Positions 20,906 to 41,932 of a stretch of DNA of 64,000 nucleotides are shown piece by piece (positions within the stretch are counted from its first letter, which is position 1; the number at the start of each line of letters is the position of its first letter). The position numbers and the translations under genes are program-made. The DNA is from Escherichia phage AV111, in sequence record OR352941.1, one strand, 5' to 3'. The notes below the pieces were generated by a model. That model saw only the letters and a program-made list of their open reading frames with translations. It did not search any database and had not been told where the DNA came from.

Positions 20906-21895
20906 TCATTTATAGTACGAATTGTGGTTTTCTAAGTAAACTTGCTCAAGGAAATCATCCCAGAAACTCATATCTACTTTTTGTTGCATACCGTTCTTAG
21001 CGGCTTGTTCTGATGCTTGTTCTACCTGGTCAACGATATCTTCTAGGAATTCTTGCACAGTTTTAAACGTATGTTTACCAAGCTTAACATCGAGAATAAA
21101 TGGAGCATCCTGAAGTGGGTAAACCAGGTCACCGGTTTTGTAAATTTCCAATAGTTGAAGTCCACCACGACATGCATGACTCAATGCTTTCCAGTCAATA
21201 CCTTCGTTGGCTTCTGCCTTACGAGCACGTTCACCATAGTTCTCTTCCAGTTTAACCAGGATGGCATTGAACTCTTTATTGGTTAACGTGTCTTGGAATT
21301 TACGGTCTAACAGATTATAGAATGTTTGCTTACCTGTTTTCTCGTTTTCGGTTTCAACCCACGAAGCAAATTCACCTACGGGCAGAACATTCTTCATATG
21401 TGATAAACGAATTACTGCACCATTATCAAAGTATTGTCCCCATTCATTAGAACGTTTAAGGGCTTGACGAAGAACGGCCAGTCGAGAACCCTTGACACCA
21501 TATTTAGAAGCTTGCTTACGGACATACCCTAAATAAGATTTCATGTTAGTGGTATAGAAACGAGACCTGTTATCTTGAATATACTTCCATACATCAGGCA
21601 AATCAGATTTAACTACTAGACTTGGTGGAGTGTGAAGCATATCTAATGCGACGGTTTCACCATCCGCAGCCAGTTTAAAGAAATATTTGAGACTATATAA
21701 CTCATGGTCCACGTCGTCTTTTGTGTTCTTAGAAGATGTGTTATTCGTGTTCTTGCTCATGTGTTCTTTAACGTTACCGGTCAAGATATCACGAGCATGA
21801 GGGACATAAATTTCTTTAAAATCGACGTCAGATTCAGGAGTAGACGTTCCATAAAGGTGGCTACCAAAGTAGCCTTTCATAATTGTTTTCATCAT
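20906..21895 (-). CDS. nucleotidyltransferase-fold protein (Pol-beta-like superfamily)
   Basis: 329 aa; N-terminal FGSHLYGTSTPESDVDF matches the hG[GS]-x(9-13)-Dh[DE] NTase signature. Confidence 0.55.
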   Translation of the reverse strand: MMKTIMKGYFGSHLYGTSTPESDVDFKEIYVPHARDILTGNVKEHMSKNTNNTSSKNTKDDVDHELYSLKYFFKLAADGETVALDMLHTPPSLVVKSDLPDVWKYIQDNRSRFYTTNMKSYLGYVRKQASKYGVKGSRLAVLRQALKRSNEWGQYFDNGAVIRLSHMKNVLPVGEFASWVETENEKTGKQTFYNLLDRKFQDTLTNKEFNAILVKLEENYGERARKAEANEGIDWKALSHACRGGLQLLEIYKTGDLVYPLQDAPFILDVKLGKHTFKTVQEFLEDIVDQVEQASEQAAKNGMQQKVDMSFWDDFLEQVYLENHNSYYK

Positions 21896-22917: not shown

Positions 22918-23221
22918 TTAAAGTTTCAACAAAATTCACCAAATCATTCAGACAAGCATCAACCTGTTTTTCATAAAAGTCTTCGTTATCATTTACTGCA
23001 TGATAAGCTACATCATTCAAATCTGAATCGGCTTCACGTAAGTCACGGATAAGGTCCATCAATTTATTAGCTTGTTCACGGGTCATTTTACCATACTCGT
23101 TTCAATAAGATTCATTATGCCGTTTACCATGTTATAAGTAAACATTGGATAATTGTATTGTACCACAACATAAGCGATAAGCAAAAGTTTCATTTTGTTC
23201 TCCGTTTGTTTTGATAGGACT

Positions 23222-23251
23222 ACTATAACATAGTCCTACCAAGATGTAAAC
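23222..23251 (-). promoter_or_regulatory. early promoter (stem-loop cassette family)
   Basis: Minus GTTTACA-N17-TATAGT embedded in TAGGACTA...TAGTCCTA palindrome. Confidence 0.55.
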
Positions 23252-31452: not shown

Positions 31453-31678
31453 CTCGGTCCCATGATTTGGCCATTAATTCGGACATAAATTCTTCAATGC
31501 GCGTTTCTTTAGATGGACTTTCACTATTAGAGACCGCAAGTTTGTAATCTGCAATAGGACAGAACATATCAAGGTCCATATTAAGGTCGTCTTTGATTTT
31601 TTCTTCTGACACATCTTTATCGTATGTGTACAGATAACTATCACATGATTCTGATTTAATGTAAATTGCTATACTCAT
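31442..31678 (-). CDS. hypothetical acidic protein
   Basis: Start at second ATG (MSIAIYIK) overlapping upstream stop. Confidence 0.4.
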   Translation of the reverse strand: MSIAIYIKSESCDSYLYTYDKDVSEEKIKDDLNMDLDMFCPIADYKLAVSNSESPSKETRIEEFMSELMAKSWDRDDE

Positions 31679-32166
31679 CTCAAATTCCTGCATTCGGTAA
31701 TAAAACGTTCAACTTCATTATTCTTGGCCTTTATCTTGTCTTTACGTTCCTGTAAACTACTTTTAACAAGATTAATAATGATGCCTACAGTACCGCCGCC
31801 AATGATGCCACCAACAACACTTATGATAATAGATGCTAATAAGATAGCAATAATATCAACAAAACCGAAAGAACTCACCTTAGTACTAAAAAACCATACC
31901 GATGGTACAAATATAATCCATCCTGCTATCCATTGGCACTTATTGAAAAACTTTTCAAGATCAGCTTGAGTTGTTCGTATTACTTCATCGATAGGTTGAT
32001 AACCGTTAATGTATCTGTTCACGATAATACCTGCTGGCTGGTCGATTTTAAATTCTTGGCAAATACGTTTAACTAAGTAGGATGGACATCCTGTCCAATC
32101 TACTGAATAGTATGAAATACCTTCGTTGCCATCGTCTATATTAGACCAATATGTTTTGTTAATCAT
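31675..32166 (-). CDS. membrane protein with C-terminal ERFITECR tail
   Basis: 163 aa; TM segments in C-terminal half; shared tail motif. Confidence 0.5.
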   Translation of the reverse strand: MINKTYWSNIDDGNEGISYYSVDWTGCPSYLVKRICQEFKIDQPAGIIVNRYINGYQPIDEVIRTTQADLEKFFNKCQWIAGWIIFVPSVWFFSTKVSSFGFVDIIAILLASIIISVVGGIIGGGTVGIIINLVKSSLQERKDKIKAKNNEVERFITECRNLR

Positions 32167-32852
32167 TACCAGCCTTCCATAGGGAATTCCAGATAAACTT
32201 GAGCGTTGACACGAATTTCATTGGTAATCTTTTTAACTCGGTCTGTATTACGAGATACACGTCCGAACCAACGCCATCCATTACTAATTGCACGAGAACC
32301 AGTGTGCCATGTTTGCCAATCAAACTGAAGAAGAGTACGGTCTGGAGCTTCCCATTTCTCTAGTTCACCTTTTTCAATTTTTTCGAGGACTTCTTTGTGC
32401 CACTGGCGATAGATAAGTTCACCATCAGGAATCTGACTGAACTCTGCAGTTCCTGTTGCAAAATGAGTAGGACACACATCAGCGTTAACAAGACCAAGAA
32501 TATGTTCAGATAAATAGCGAGGATTGTCATAATCAGGTTGTCCTGCAGTAATAAAGTGTTGACCAACTGGAATATCAGGGCGTGGTACGTCATCATGGTG
32601 ATAACCTGGGATAGCAGGGTACCAACCGGGCATCAGCATATGAACCCGAGAATCAAATACAACATGTTGATTAGTCCAATCAATTGGGAGATTGGCAATA
32701 AAGCTACGAGTGATTGAGCCACCATTATCCCAAGCAAAACCCAAATCACAATTAAAGAACATTGGTTCATTTTTGATTCGGTCATTTTGTACGTTATGTG
32801 CAAAACTACCAACTGCACGAGCTTGACTATTAAACACTTTAGAACTATTCAT
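32166..32852 (-). CDS. hypothetical protein, His/Asp-rich
   Basis: 228 aa; GYHHDD and WHTGSRA segments. Confidence 0.5.
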   Translation of the reverse strand: MNSSKVFNSQARAVGSFAHNVQNDRIKNEPMFFNCDLGFAWDNGGSITRSFIANLPIDWTNQHVVFDSRVHMLMPGWYPAIPGYHHDDVPRPDIPVGQHFITAGQPDYDNPRYLSEHILGLVNADVCPTHFATGTAEFSQIPDGELIYRQWHKEVLEKIEKGELEKWEAPDRTLLQFDWQTWHTGSRAISNGWRWFGRVSRNTDRVKKITNEIRVNAQVYLEFPMEGW

Positions 32853-32853
32853 A

Positions 32854-33159
32854 TTATTTTCCTCGACATTCTTTAATGAAATTTTCTAGATTGGTAGATT
32901 CAATAGCTTTTTTACGAGCTTCTGCGTGTTCTTCTTCAGACAATTTACATTTATAATTGACCCAGACGTTATGGTCGAAACTAGTCGTGGCATATAATAA
33001 CAATGCTCCAACGAATAGCAAAAACGGCGATAAGAATACAAAACCAGGAACACCATCCATACTGTAAGCCTTTTGTAATACTGCAACAGAAAGAGTTGCG
33101 TAAAAAGGTGATGCAAGTATTGTTAAAAGACCAATTCGATTGGTTTCTGTTAATTTCAT
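32854..33159 (-). CDS. membrane protein with C-terminal ENFIKECR tail
   Basis: 101 aa; two TM segments; SD GAGGAGA; early promoter 33188-33217. Confidence 0.55.
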   Translation of the reverse strand: MKLTETNRIGLLTILASPFYATLSVAVLQKAYSMDGVPGFVFLSPFLLFVGALLLYATTSFDHNVWVNYKCKLSEEEHAEARKKAIESTNLENFIKECRGK

Positions 33160-33187
33160 AATATTCTCCTCATGTTTTAATAGGACT

Positions 33188-33217
33188 ACTATAACATAGT
33201 CCTATAATTGTGTAAAC
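33188..33217 (-). promoter_or_regulatory. early promoter (stem-loop cassette family)
   Basis: Minus GTTTACA-N17-TATAGT in TAGGACTA...TAGTCCTA palindrome, then SD GAGGAGA and ATG 33159. Confidence 0.55.
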
Positions 33218-33229
33218 AGTTTTGTGAAG

Positions 33230-34186
33230 TTATTTGAAAGGTTTTACCATATGGAAATTTTGTTTGAAACGTTTGACGTAATCGTCATGTCCTAAGCTTT
33301 GGTACATACTTACTACTTTGCTGTAGTTTTCCCAGGCGTATTCACGGAACCAACCGGAGGTGATGCTTGTGCAGACTTTTTCCAATGCCATTATGAAACT
33401 GGCTTCAGGGTTAATTTCAAAGTTATTAGGAATCTGAGAACGTTCTAATGCTAGTACACATGATTCTTCATATACACCGGCCAATTTGACCATTTCTGGT
33501 AATGATTCGAACTTCTCGCGTGAGGTCATGACTTCAGAACCATCTTTCATGTAAAATGTATACGCTGGACGGTCAGTTAGTGCAATGGCTTCATGGATAG
33601 TATCATGGTCATATGTATAGATGTCATCTTTAAAGAACGCACTTTTAGAAGTGTCAAGAACTGGGTGAGCATAATTCAAGGTTTCTTTCTGGCGTTTCAG
33701 CATAATTTCAGTAAGTTCATCGTTCAGTGTAACACCTTTACCACGAAGATACTGAATATGGTTCATAGTCTTTAAAAAGAATGGATTATTTTTCTTGAAA
33801 CGATGAGACATCTTAATTGCAAGACATATCTCAGGAGTTGCCCAGTAAAACCCGTTCAAACGGTCTTTAGTCAAATTTTTCTTGGCGTATTTTAAAAGGT
33901 CATAAGAAGACGTGAAATCTTCAGGAGTGAGTTCACCGACTAATTCACGGACATTAGTGATTGCCGGAACAATATATGCTTCAAAATGAGTTTCGCGTCC
34001 ATTATGGAAGCATTTGAAAACTTGGACATCAGGGTTATCTTGGTGAACATATACACCCATCATTTGATTTTTGAATGCATTCCAAGAACATTGGTCCGCA
34101 ATAAAGTCCCAATCACTATTTTTAATAGCGCTAGAATCAATAAGACCGTGATAGTGAAGTGCACGAGAACCAATAACTAACATCAT
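33230..34186 (-). CDS. hypothetical protein with N-terminal NTase-like motif
   Basis: 318 aa; N-terminus VIGSRALHYHGLIDSSAIKNSDWDF resembles the GS...D.D nucleotidyltransferase signature. Confidence 0.5.
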   Translation of the reverse strand: MMLVIGSRALHYHGLIDSSAIKNSDWDFIADQCSWNAFKNQMMGVYVHQDNPDVQVFKCFHNGRETHFEAYIVPAITNVRELVGELTPEDFTSSYDLLKYAKKNLTKDRLNGFYWATPEICLAIKMSHRFKKNNPFFLKTMNHIQYLRGKGVTLNDELTEIMLKRQKETLNYAHPVLDTSKSAFFKDDIYTYDHDTIHEAIALTDRPAYTFYMKDGSEVMTSREKFESLPEMVKLAGVYEESCVLALERSQIPNNFEINPEASFIMALEKVCTSITSGWFREYAWENYSKVVSMYQSLGHDDYVKRFKQNFHMVKPFK

Positions 34187-34214
34187 AATATTTTCCTCGG
34201 ATTAATTCATTAAC

Positions 34215-34466
34215 TTAAATTTCACGACATGCGATATTATATTCATCCCAGAGGTCATCATGTGAAGCCTCTACCAATGGAACGATTGTACCGTTTATGT
34301 CTTCATTATAAGGGCAAATTGTACAGTGCGCATCTTCGAATCGGATGCCTTTGTGTTCAGATTTTTTATAACGCATATCGAATATCTTTGCAAACTTTTC
34401 ACGAGTAATGGTTTTAGCAACTACTTTGGTTCCGATACTTTCGTAATAAATCATTGTGGACTCCAT
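34215..34466 (-). CDS. hypothetical protein
   Basis: 83 aa ORF downstream of early promoter 34483-34512. Confidence 0.5.
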   Translation of the reverse strand: MESTMIYYESIGTKVVAKTITREKFAKIFDMRYKKSEHKGIRFEDAHCTICPYNEDINGTIVPLVEASHDDLWDEYNIACREI

Positions 34467-34482
34467 TTGTTTTGATAGGACT

Positions 34483-34512
34483 ACTATAACATAGCCCTAT
34501 CTTGTTGTAAAC
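34483..34512 (-). promoter_or_regulatory. early promoter (stem-loop cassette family)
   Basis: Near-identical copy of the 33188 element. Confidence 0.55.
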
Positions 34513-34516
34513 TGTT

Positions 34517-34714
34517 TTAGCAAGAATAACTAGATGATACCCAGCCTTGAACAGTGATACTATTGTGGGATAATGAGATCGCGTCCTGGAGATTCAGACC
34601 TGCGTTATCTTCAATCCATAATGTAACTTCTTCGCGTTCTTCTGTTGCAATTTGGAACAGGTTTTCCAGAGCAGCTACTGCCGTACGTACAGCACAATCT
34701 AATTCACGAGACAT
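34517..34714 (-). CDS. small protein, WVSSS-x-x-C family
   Basis: 65 aa ending QGWVSSSYSC. Confidence 0.5.
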   Translation of the reverse strand: MSRELDCAVRTAVAALENLFQIATEEREEVTLWIEDNAGLNLQDAISLSHNSITVQGWVSSSYSC

Positions 34715-34723
34715 ATGGTTTCC

Positions 34724-34996
34724 TTAGCAAGTGTGAGAAGATGCGACCCAGCCGCCATCTTCAAGGCTCAGGTTGTAGTCGTATTGGTAAACGTCAGCCC
34801 ATTCAGCCTGGCCGTTTTTTGTACAACGTTCAAGATCGGCTTTAAGATGTCCGGGTGAATGATAGGTTCCACCCATACCATAAGCTGGATACAAGTTGAA
34901 CGTTGTGTTTTGTTTATCAGCAATTTCTTTGGCAGCCTCAATAGCTGCATAGATTTTTGCTACAGCTTCAGCCAGTTCGGTTTGTTCTTTAGACAT
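34724..34996 (-). CDS. small protein, WVSSS-x-x-C family
   Basis: 90 aa ending DGGWVASSHTC; paralog of 35006-35311. Confidence 0.55.
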   Translation of the reverse strand: MSKEQTELAEAVAKIYAAIEAAKEIADKQNTTFNLYPAYGMGGTYHSPGHLKADLERCTKNGQAEWADVYQYDYNLSLEDGGWVASSHTC

Positions 34997-35005
34997 AATG
35001 ATTCC

Positions 35006-35311
35006 TTAGCACAACGCAGAAGACGAAACCCAAGCACCTTCAGTAATAACGTAACCATTACCTTCACGCTTAACATCGCCACCATTATTTTCAATTTCAT
35101 CTTTCATCCACTGGGATACGATTTCACCCTTAGGATAATAAGTACGGCCGCTACCATAATCACCTACAGAAAATGATACGGCATATTGGTCTGCGATCTT
35201 TGTTGCTTCTTCTTCGATACGTTCAGCTTGATTCAGAAGTTTATAAATTGCATCTGAAGCGGATTTGGCATCATTAAACTCTGGTACTTTAATTTCAATA
35301 ATCTTACTCAT
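35006..35311 (-). CDS. small protein, WVSSS-x-x-C family
   Basis: 101 aa ending EGAWVSSSALC; ATG overlaps upstream stop. Confidence 0.55.
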   Translation of the reverse strand: MSKIIEIKVPEFNDAKSASDAIYKLLNQAERIEEEATKIADQYAVSFSVGDYGSGRTYYPKGEIVSQWMKDEIENNGGDVKREGNGYVITEGAWVSSSALC

Positions 35312-35667
35312 TTTCTACATTCCTTAATAAAGTTTTCGATTGTTTCATTTTCACGTTTAGCTAGAAGTTCATTATAACTAATCATTTGAGAAGCGTAAAT
35401 ATTTTTATTTTTCTTGTTATGGTTTATAAAATCGTAGTAAAAATAGACTACGGTACAAAAGGATGCGATGGATGCAAAGGCTTGGGTATACCGTAAGTCC
35501 TGCCATTGGTCTGTGAATCCACCAGTGTTCCCTATAAATCCTAACACAACGCCGTCAATAAGAAATCCAACTAATCCAAAGGCAAATCCCATGCCAATAC
35601 TCATAATAAAAATTAGAATGTTCTCACCAAGAGAAGGCCATACGGTTAAGAGTTGAGGCTTTTGCAT
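35308..35667 (-). CDS. membrane protein with C-terminal ENFIKECRK tail
   Basis: 119 aa, multiple TM segments. Confidence 0.5.
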   Translation of the reverse strand: MQKPQLLTVWPSLGENILIFIMSIGMGFAFGLVGFLIDGVVLGFIGNTGGFTDQWQDLRYTQAFASIASFCTVVYFYYDFINHNKKNKNIYASQMISYNELLAKRENETIENFIKECRK

Positions 35668-36071
35668 CTTATTTCCTTAACGAATTCCATAGCTTCTTCA
35701 TATTCATACTTTTTAACAGCTTCATCATACTGAGCTTTGGCTTTTGCGCACTGAACTTTCCATTCACGAACTCGAGCTCTGTGATGACGGCCTTGGTACC
35801 AATATCCCACCCAGTTAATAGGCATTAATAAAAATGGCACAATAAACGGCCCGGCTATAACAAGTAAAAACACTGCATCAGACGATATAACTTCACTAGA
35901 ATCTAAAACAGCTCCTATAATCATAAAGATTAAAAATGCTAAAGCTAAAATAGGGCCAAATAGTACTTCGTTTGGGATTAATTTACGTTTGTATTCGTAT
36001 GCCCAGGGCTTACTTGGCATGTATAGGGTTGGCTTTGACATATTCTCTACATTCCATAATAAATTGCTCAA
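35646..36071 (-). CDS. membrane protein (start uncertain)
   Basis: 141 aa with TM segments; N-terminus overlaps 36010-36633. Confidence 0.45.
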   Translation of the reverse strand: MSNLLWNVENMSKPTLYMPSKPWAYEYKRKLIPNEVLFGPILALAFLIFMIIGAVLDSSEVISSDAVFLLVIAGPFIVPFLLMPINWVGYWYQGRHHRARVREWKVQCAKAKAQYDEAVKKYEYEEAMEFVKEIRCKSLNS

Positions 36072-36633
36072 GGATTAAATTGTTAGTGAAATTAGGACTA
36101 ACAACCATAGTTTCATAAAGCGCGTCAATAGCACTTAAAGCATCAACTCTTTTAAGCAAAGGCTTGCCTTCATACATAGTTTCAGAATCGATGATTAACG
36201 TAAAGTAATATTTTTTATTATCGACTAGAACTTCTGTATCGATATAAAACATATTAGACCTCAGAAGCTTATCTCTAAAACCATAATAATCTTCTGAACG
36301 TTCACTGATATATTCCAATTCGGTGTTTAAACAACAAACAGACCACGTAGGAGCAACGAAATCAGTGAATCTAATATCATGGTCTGCAACTAGTTTAGCA
36401 ATAGCTCCGATATCATGAATCATAATACCTGGGGCTAATAAAGATTTTCTGCTATGGCTAGCCGTTTTCTCGGTGGTCTCATAAGAAGACGACCAGTACC
36501 ATTTACGTCCGGTTGCAACATATCGTAATGAATCAACTAAAGACGTAGGTGGATTTACCTTATCTCGGAACTCTTCGAACATTGAGTCAATATCATTATT
36601 TTGGTTTCGCATGTTAACTCCTTTATTATCCAA
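36010..36633 (-). CDS. hypothetical protein with C-terminal ...FIMECR motif
   Basis: 207 aa ORF. Confidence 0.5.
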   Translation of the reverse strand: MDNKGVNMRNQNNDIDSMFEEFRDKVNPPTSLVDSLRYVATGRKWYWSSSYETTEKTASHSRKSLLAPGIMIHDIGAIAKLVADHDIRFTDFVAPTWSVCCLNTELEYISERSEDYYGFRDKLLRSNMFYIDTEVLVDNKKYYFTLIIDSETMYEGKPLLKRVDALSAIDALYETMVVSPNFTNNLILEQFIMECREYVKANPIHAK

Positions 36634-39474: not shown

Positions 39475-39550
39475 TGGTGCCTCTAGAAAGATTTGAACTC
39501 TCACCATTAACCTTAGAATGATTATATGCTATCCATTACACTATAGAGGC
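39475..39550 (-). tRNA. tRNA-Arg (anticodon UCU), CCA encoded
   Basis: Hand-folded 76 nt cloverleaf: acceptor GCCUCUA/UAGAGGC, D-stem GUGU/GCAU, anticodon stem UAAUC/GGUUA with loop AUUCUAA, T-arm GAGAG-UUCAAAU-CUUUC. Confidence 0.75.
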
Positions 39551-40201
39551 AATTAAATTATTTACAATATCTTCTTTATAAACTTCAGCATAATGAAGTT
39601 CATATATTTCCCATCCTAATGATTTTATAATATCATGGCGTTCTTTATAATAAGGGGCCAAAATCTTTTTCTTAGGATTGGAGTAATGTTGGTTTCCATT
39701 AACTTCAATAATAATCTTTTTATCTATTAAAGCAATATCCGTGCAATACGCTCGGTTTTTAACCGGTTGGTATTCTTCAATAAATGAAATTCCATTTTCT
39801 ATTAATTTAGATTTCAAAAATTCACAAGGCACAGATTTAAATTTTGTATTTTTCTTCCAAGGATGTTTATCGGGGTTTTCATTCAACCATTTTTTCCGAG
39901 CATTAGATATTTTTATTCTAGCTTCCTCAGAGTGTTCTCTACCTAATGAAGCGGCTGACAATTTTTGTCTAGTCTCTTCCGAAATTACTACAGGAACACC
40001 AGTCTTTTTAGATACAACATACTGGTTTAAATTACCTGAAGCTATACGTGCTTTATTCATTGCTGCAATGGCTGATTTAGAACTTTCTTTATACAATTCC
40101 AATTTAGGGTTGGATTTACACCATCTAGTGTGGTTAGCCATCCATCCTTTAGGTTTATTAGAAATATCAAATTCCATATTACAATGTTTACAAATGCTCA
40201 T
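39536..40201 (-). CDS. homing-endonuclease-like protein: Zn finger + NUMOD3-like repeats + DUF559/Vsr-like PD-(D/E)XK nuclease domain
   Basis: ATG at 40199-40201 (track start is TTG 40207); CKHC...WC; SEETRQKLSAASLG and SEEARIKISNARK; C-terminal IDKKIIIEVNGNQH...ERHDIIKSLGWEI; sits between tRNA genes. Confidence 0.6.
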   Translation of the reverse strand: MSICKHCNMEFDISNKPKGWMANHTRWCKSNPKLELYKESSKSAIAAMNKARIASGNLNQYVVSKKTGVPVVISEETRQKLSAASLGREHSEEARIKISNARKKWLNENPDKHPWKKNTKFKSVPCEFLKSKLIENGISFIEEYQPVKNRAYCTDIALIDKKIIIEVNGNQHYSNPKKKILAPYYKERHDIIKSLGWEIYELHYAEVYKEDIVNNLIASIV

Positions 40202-40275
40202 TACCAATTATCTCCTATAAAATATAGGAGTATTTATTATTTGGATAGAGCACTTAATTTACTTCGTTTAAATTA

Positions 40276-40347
40276 CTGGCGCACTTTGACTCGAACCAAG
40301 ATAAAGGAGTTAACAGCTCCCCGTAATAACCTTTATACGATGCACCA
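40276..40347 (-). tRNA. candidate tRNA-Asn (anticodon GUU), CCA not encoded
   Basis: Hand-folded 72 nt: acceptor UGGUGCA/UGCGCCA (one GU), anticodon stem GGGAG/CUCCU with loop CUGUUAA, T-loop UUCGAGU; one G-A mismatch in T-stem, 3-bp D-stem. Confidence 0.4.
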
Positions 40348-41886: not shown

Positions 41887-41902
41887 TTGTTTTGATAGGA
41901 CT

Positions 41903-41932
41903 ACTATAACATAATCCTATCAGCATGTAAAC
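41903..41932 (-). promoter_or_regulatory. early promoter (stem-loop cassette family)
   Basis: Minus GTTTACA-N17-TATAGT in TAGGACTA...TAGGATTA near-palindrome. Confidence 0.55.

Follow-up and report, generated by a model that had tools for sequence, protein, structure and literature searches.

Does the open reading frame (ORF) that lies between e and the tRNA genes of Escherichia phage AV111 encode a nucleotidyltransferase (NTase), and if so, on what might such an enzyme act? The window analyzed here, a stretch of 64,000 nucleotides (sequence record OR352941.1), comes from an RB69-like T4-type phage with 96-97% identity over 3.5 kb to Mosigvirus genomes such as APCEc01. A preliminary description of this DNA had claimed a 318-aa ORF at 33230-34186, and this ORF is present and uninterrupted, on the minus strand, which had been left unstated. 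The protein starts with MMLVIGSRALHYHGLIDSSAIKNSDWDF, and the start codon of the gene is an ATG at 34186, with a GAGGAAA ribosome-binding site 7 nt upstream. The gene and its two parts are as follows:

33230..34186, minus strand: enzyme gene, 318 aa, DUF7277 plus DUF7275, phrog_2141
33842..34186, minus strand: predicted Pol-beta-type NTase core, N-terminal, aa 1-115, with beta1, helix 1, beta2 and the E69-bearing beta-sheet
33272..33829, minus strand: DUF7275 region, aa 120-305

A profile search, as the preliminary description had proposed, matched residues 2-101 to the Pfam family DUF7277 (E 1.3e-27, 96.7 bits against a cutoff of 27) and residues 120-305 to DUF7275 (E 3.3e-78, 262.3 bits against a cutoff of 27), and the protein also matched phrog_2141 at 2.5e-149, a PHROG without known function. 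Homologues that carry names are all "hypothetical" except for a few evidently automatic labels, among which "prohead assembly scaffold protein" and "HNS-dependent expression A" look like automatic mis-annotations. The label "sulfurtransferase" in phage vB_Eco_F31 attaches to an e.3-like membrane protein outside the cassette. Sequence searches of the PDB with the enzyme, with the family profile and with the profile of the small proteins described below gave no meaningful match, and no description of the DUF or PHROG identifiers, of related concepts or of such a cassette was found in the literature.

The family comprises 2,220 clusters at 90% identity in a word-indexed search and 1,597 clusters at 50% identity in an exhaustive HMM search of 1.84 billion representatives, with 563 of the 1,597 at E<=1e-30. 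The best 150 of these 1,597 clusters are all 256-377 aa long, and no domain fusion was found among them. With tblastn, members were detected in 733 of 50,697 GenBank phage records, from T4-like phages of Enterobacteria, Aeromonas and Acinetobacter to Phapecoctavirus, jumbo phages, Myxococcus phage Mx1, actinophages and phages of Pseudomonas, Ralstonia and Stenotrophomonas, while shorter forms occur in Streptomyces, Gordonia and Vibrio phages. Since prokaryotes (one genome each of 185,579 species) gave just 5 matches, all on MAG contigs, the family is essentially phage-restricted. It is among the larger uncharacterized families of big lytic phages and was previously known just as two DUFs.

The preliminary description had seen a G-S...D-x-D arrangement near the N-terminus, followed by a long helical region, and had read the protein as NTase-like. 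To examine this reading, an AlphaFold2 model was built from an alignment of 52 sequences (mean pLDDT 92.9, pTM 0.86). In the model, strand 2-5 runs into a helix that begins at G6-S7 (motif I-G6-S7), strand 26-31 carries D25-x-D27 (D25-W-D27-F) and is followed by a helix, and a third carboxylate, E69, sits on strand 64-73 within the sheet. The rest is mostly helical, with helices from residue 75 to 309, as had been claimed. The minimal alpha/beta NTase fold is recognizable by structure comparison, and the enzyme shows what defines the Pol-beta-like superfamily, namely hG[GS] at the start of helix 1, [DE]h[DE]h on strand 2 and a third carboxylate. The fold prediction thus gave an NTase fold, which supports the earlier reading.

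A lone GS...DxD motif might occur by chance, but chance does not account for its conservation over 91 family members from 25 clades. G6, S7 and D27 are each kept in 90 of the 91, position 25 has D in 88 members and E in 2 others, and position 69 has E in 79 and D in 7. Even the most divergent actinophage homologue, the 248-aa protein of Streptomyces phage BillNye, starts with MKTLVGS...DVDFF. We had considered that actinophage homologues lack the NTase part, as their tblastn alignments started from residue 78, and this proved wrong, for the BillNye protein has VGS...DVDFF and a shortened sheet. As far as computation tells, the gene encodes an NTase-fold enzyme with an intact predicted Pol-beta active site.

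The preliminary description had pointed to two NTase-fold candidates in the window. The other one is presumably the ORF at 20906-21895 (minus strand, 329 aa), which carries FGSHLYGTSTPESDVDF and matches the Pfam family RlaP (PF10127, "RNA repair pathway DNA polymerase beta family") with 48.5 bits, where the cutoff is 23. Both candidates do lie in the window, but the RlaP ORF is about 11 kb away, beyond tk and outside the e-tRNA interval. The two share the superfamily motif hGS...DxD and the status of phage accessory genes; the RlaP ORF, however, falls in another Pfam family, lacks tail-protein partners and shows no sequence relationship to the family of the enzyme (hhalign probability 0.1%).

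The best-conserved part of the enzyme is its C-terminal half, in which the fully invariant residues include K125, H128, K139, H194, D195, H198, E240, E241, E248, R249 and S274. The first helices of DUF7275, which bear K125, H128 and K139, were assigned to the helical lobe usual in compact NTases, where TglT aligns. The distal ~170 aa of the DUF7275 region form an all-helical domain of no known fold, with the invariants H194-D195-x-x-H198, E240-E241, E248-R249 and S274. A four-helix HEPN domain with R-x(4-6)-H after the NTase domain was not found in the enzyme.

Directly upstream of the enzyme gene, on the same strand, the window contains three genes for small acidic proteins that end in nearly the same way:

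34517..34714, minus strand: tail protein 1, 65 aa, pI 4.2, ending ...GWVSSSYSC-stop, phrog_4882
34724..34996, minus strand: tail protein 2, 90 aa, pI 4.8, YGMGGTY inside, ending ...GWVASSHTC-stop, phrog_899
35006..35311, minus strand: tail protein 3, 101 aa, pI 4.6, DYGSGRTYY inside, ending ...AWVSSSALC-stop, phrog_899

Both phrog_899 and phrog_4882 are without known function, and the three proteins have no match at all in Pfam. Across the family, these tail proteins have a median length of 92 aa, a median net charge of -8.5 and a median pI of 4.4. Their N-terminus is an amphipathic helix closing with ...A-D-E-x-G-x-x-F, often followed by Y-G-M-G-G-x-Y, and their C-terminus reads G-x-W-x-S-S-x-x-C and then a stop codon. 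W(-7), S(-4) and C(0) are invariant and S(-3) is nearly so, with a gap between the S-S pair and the terminal Cys that ranges from 0 to 3 residues. The distinct paralogue types found within one phage have the tail alone in common. In T4, gp49.3 (L100 47823-48131) and tk.1 (L101 347-535) are weak matches to the N-terminal core of the tail proteins, with the core motifs ...A-x-E-G-I-D-F...Y-G-E and L-S-F-E-I-S-S-E-Y-G-D-A-E-T-Y-Y, and the W-x-S-S-x-x-C tail is absent from both.

The partnership extends far beyond this phage. ORFs were called and neighbours clustered at 80 viral loci, 5 genome loci and several GenBank loci, and the only neighbour family that stood out consisted of the small proteins upstream on the same strand, which BLAST clustering alone placed in 15 of 25 lineages, often in several copies. 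When 16,914 ORFs of >=30 aa from 91 loci plus the window were scanned for the tail, a strict pattern matched 183, of which 179 lie on the strand of the enzyme gene and 164 within 2 kb upstream of it. One to four strict copies occur at 84 of the 91 enzyme loci, and in the whole 64-kb window the strict pattern matches only the three ORFs listed above. The strict pattern places tail proteins in 19 of 25 lineages, and a relaxed one raises this to 22 by adding three lineages with a tail protein immediately upstream (...WVQSSC, ...WDSSTC and ...WNSSDC). Conversely, four small-protein matches were obtained without use of the enzyme, and 0.1-0.6 kb downstream of each lies a DUF7277+DUF7275 gene. By synteny mapping, T4 lacks the block 32166-35311, with the enzyme gene and the three tail genes, between the e.2 and e.3 homologues, and a scan of 66 kb of T4 (1-50 kb and 60-76 kb) found neither a member of the enzyme family nor an ORF with the tail motif. 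The enzyme and its one to four upstream tail proteins are a widespread two-part phage module, bound in a near-obligate genomic partnership.

The three lineages without a tail protein nearby are those of the short-form enzymes of Streptomyces, Gordonia and Vibrio phages. These enzymes keep the catalytic and core residues and have replaced R165, Y172, H174, P175, Y190, C272, S277 and R281, all of which are invariant in the 84 tail-associated enzymes. As they are replaced where tail proteins are absent, these eight residues are candidates for tail recognition.

A 377-aa protein (P0278; L102 107-1240) had appeared to be a Rosetta-stone fusion of tail protein and enzyme, and was rejected as a read-through gene call that joins the two. 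Its DNA has an in-frame TAG after ...QWNSSGGPACW, and the enzyme begins at a GTG behind its own ribosome-binding site, so that P0278 is either a gene-calling artefact or comes from a contig that uses TAG recoding.

We also considered tRNA biology, since the enzyme gene sits between e and the tRNA genes in the window. As a property of the family, this association was rejected: outside one syntenic clade of enterobacterial T4-like phages, a tRNA lies within 10 kb in just 4 of ~50 loci. A Pfam scan of 118 other neighbours, for which each of 25 lineages supplied one locus, found no other family enriched or conserved (Metallophos 3, NAPRTase 2, the rest mostly singletons). A theme of NAD or ADP-ribose, raised by NAMPT, Prs, Macro, Nudix and Sir2 neighbours, was likewise set aside, being confined to few lineages and unenriched among the 118. 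One group of phages that carry rIIB/NAMPT has a Macro-domain gene in overlap with the 3' end of the enzyme gene, and NAMPT and Prs just upstream (loci of this theme: L093 6388-6861, L097 6745-7221, L098 6409-6900; L006 708-2393), and in Vibrio phage RYC, NAMPT, Prs and a phosphatase lie directly upstream of the enzyme gene.

Between the small genes and the enzyme gene, the window contains a promoter-like site and one further ORF, listed here with a repeated element:

34483..34511, minus strand: T4-early-type promoter-like site, TTTACA-17-TATAGT with extended TG, from a consensus scan
34215..34466, minus strand: 83-aa ORF, phrog_3723
23214-23233, 33180-33199, 34475-34494 and 41895-41914, all minus strand: copies of the 20-nt element CTATGTTATAGTAGTCCTAT

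The promoter-like site is upstream of both the 83-aa ORF and the enzyme gene, and its sequence suggests that they may be expressed early. The element occurs four times in the window, once at this site, against 0.01 expected by chance, and it overlaps the -10 hexamer of T4-early-type promoter-like sites (GTTTACA-17-TATAGT). The enzyme gene has one copy on either side, and around the copy at 33180-33199 there is a 9-bp inverted repeat (ATAGGACTA/TAGTCCTAT). The 83-aa ORF is lineage-specific and absent from the cross-lineage neighbour clusters, and is not a general part of the cassette.

Some further ORFs of the region deserve mention. The T4-absent block also contains a 228-aa ORF (32166-32852, minus strand, phrog_1843) with a GYHHDD motif and no Pfam match, which in 2 of the 25 lineages is found again on the downstream side of the enzyme gene. 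A near-C-terminal F-[IV]-x-E-[CI]-R (variants NFIKECR, RFITECR, QFIMECR and EFVKEIR) is common to five minus-strand ORFs, several of them with hydrophobic membrane-like segments, and these form a second family of the region in which a C-terminal motif recurs. The ORFs 31675-32166, 35308-35667, 35646-36071 and 36010-36633 correspond to T4 e.2-e.5; the remaining one, 32854-33159, is without a T4 match, and its likeness to an e.2-like paralogue lies in the motif alone. Within the tRNA cluster, between tRNA-Arg (39475-39550) and tRNA-Asn (40276-40347), a 223-aa ORF (39536-40207, minus strand) occupies the position of the T4 homing endonuclease segB, its 3' end overlapping tRNA-Arg by ~15 nt.

Given the two-part module, our preferred reading, held tentatively and somewhat short of probable, is that the enzyme nucleotidylylates or otherwise processes the tails of the small proteins encoded upstream. 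An active NTase of the Pol-beta superfamily, its core extended by a new conserved helical domain, would work together with these acidic proteins. The helical domain may bind their common C-terminal tail, W-x-S-S-x-x-Cys-COOH, with R165, R281, H174, C272, Y172 and S277 holding the terminal carboxylate and thiol. G6-S7 would hold the triphosphate and D25, D27 and E69 the Mg2+, and a nucleotidyl group would pass from an NTP to a hydroxyl of the tail, most likely that of one of the two conserved serines. Early expression of the module is probable, as is a role in host takeover or counter-defence. Pol-beta NTases that nucleotidylylate protein hydroxyls include GlnD acting on PII, GlnE on glutamine synthetase, MntA on HepT and DrrA on Rab1. 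Adjacency of the genes would fit just as well if the small proteins regulated or inhibited the enzyme. We consider them more likely to be clients, since several distinct paralogue types with only the tail in common occur in one phage, and since weak tail-less relatives of their core exist in T4, where no such enzyme was found in the 66 kb scanned. Against our reading it must be said that the nearest structural neighbours target tRNA 3' ends (MenT) or small molecules (ANT(2''), LnuA), not proteins, that simple nucleotidylylation of a serine leaves the invariant terminal Cys unexplained, and that the spacing from S-S to Cys varies.

An unlikely alternative is a MenT/AbiEii-like toxin that would add nucleotides to the 3' ends of host tRNA, or to other RNA, and so shut down host translation, with antitoxin-like small proteins as inhibitors or regulators whose tail would plug the active site, like the 68-aa antitoxin MenA1 on MenT1. 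MenT is indeed the closest structural family, although at E<=10 Pfam matched the enzyme to DUF7275 and DUF7277 only and not to DUF1814, and PADLOC gave no AbiE match. One to four distinct paralogues per enzyme would be unusual for antitoxins, and the invariant terminal Cys with its S-S pair resembles a reactive motif more than a plug. With a median pI of 6.3 the enzyme is mildly acidic, which a typical tRNA-binding toxin is not, and this, together with the lack of a general tRNA proximity, weighs against a toxin of the MenT kind. Another reading we regard as a long shot: the NTase would activate a tail Ser by O-nucleotidylylation, and the helical domain would eliminate it to dehydroalanine and add the Cys thiol, giving a lanthionine-type or AviCys-like ring. 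Lanthionine and AviCys termini have the ring pattern S-x-x-C-COOH, which the tail resembles; several precursor-like paralogues adjoin one enzyme, and H174 and C272, possible metal or thiolate ligands, are invariant only in the tail-associated enzymes. However, the enzyme has no likeness in fold or sequence to a LanB, LanC, LanM, LanKC or LanD domain, the clients are folded proteins of 60-160 aa and not leader-core peptides, the Ser-to-Cys distance is not constant, and we know of no Pol-beta NTase that acts in Ser activation.

If the enzyme were instead an NTase for a small molecule or a nucleotide signal (modifying, for instance, an antibiotic-like compound, an immune second messenger or a metabolite related to NAD or ADP-ribose), its linkage to the small proteins would be indirect. 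We think this very unlikely: NAPRTase accounts for only 2 of the 118 neighbours and Macro is not among the top 25 listed, and the near-obligate tail partner and the loss of tail-specific residues in partner-less lineages would be left unexplained. It is hardly likely, too, that the enzyme is bifunctional in the manner of GlnD or the CCA enzyme, with a divergent C-terminal phosphohydrolase of HD/PDE type that would remove the NTase product or heal RNA ends; the invariant residues H128...H194-D195-x-x-H198...E240 could be proposed for such an activity, and no HD-superfamily fold was found in the second domain. Returning to tail modification, a fuller version of it, rather improbable as a whole, would make the cassette a hitherto unrecognized phage-specific system, in which a Pol-beta NTase fused to a new catalytic domain modifies the W-x-S-S-x-x-Cys-COOH tails of several small acidic effectors, by nucleotidylylation or by cross-linking, and thereby arms or stabilizes early effectors of host takeover or anti-defence. 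In the cross-linked form, elimination of the nucleotidyl-activated serine and addition of the Cys would yield a lanthionine or AviCys-like tail. Were this true, it would represent a new enzymatic route of Ser activation and a RiPP-like logic applied to whole viral proteins.

A family of two DUFs now has a predicted catalytic fold, an intact predicted active site and a partner family whose tail is sharply defined and looks reactive. Should these tails be modified, the module would represent a new class of viral protein nucleotidylylation or of RiPP-like cross-linking, and would provide a handle on early acidic phage proteins that are likely effectors of host takeover or counter-defence.

Among known systems, MenT/AbiEii proteins (MenT1, 8an4; TglT/MenT3, 6j7n; MenT4, 6y56) are the closest structural family. 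In contrast to them, the phage enzyme has no sequence match to DUF1814 and carries the extra ~170-aa helical domain, its partners are one to four acidic W-x-S-S-x-x-C proteins unrelated to the MenA/AbiEi antitoxins, and its family is confined to lytic phages with no family-wide link to tRNA. The C-terminal motif IV of DUF1814 has the consensus KLxAaxxR, from which the invariant K125-M-S-H128-R129 on the first helix after the sheet differs in spacing. This motif IV has been reported to be unique to DUF1814 (PMC10435456). ANT(2'')-Ia (AadB, 4xje) and LnuA (4wh5) are also structural neighbours, but they are proteins of 160-180 aa with antibiotic substrates and no protein partner, whereas the phage enzyme is twice their size, with a dedicated conserved domain. 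On the side of the substrate, a C-terminal Ser...Cys with Cys as the last residue, and several precursor-like genes beside a single enzyme gene, recall lanthipeptides and AviCys peptides; the phage clients are whole acidic proteins, and the S-x-x-C-COOH motif is the only resemblance.

As a working analogy we take GlnD (PII), GlnE (glutamine synthetase) and MntA (HepT), in each of which a Pol-beta NTase places an NMP on a hydroxyl, the acceptor being a small protein that is dedicated or encoded alongside, with a second domain after the NTase domain in GlnD. These enzymes modify a Tyr in a loop or active site, whereas the candidate target in the phage would be a Ser-Ser pair in a Cys-ended tail; the second domain of the phage enzyme has neither an HD nor a HEPN fold, and no sequence relationship was detected. 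The NTase fold is of a known kind, and what appears to be new is the added domain, the dedicated partners with their W-x-S-S-x-x-Cys tails and the restriction to phages.
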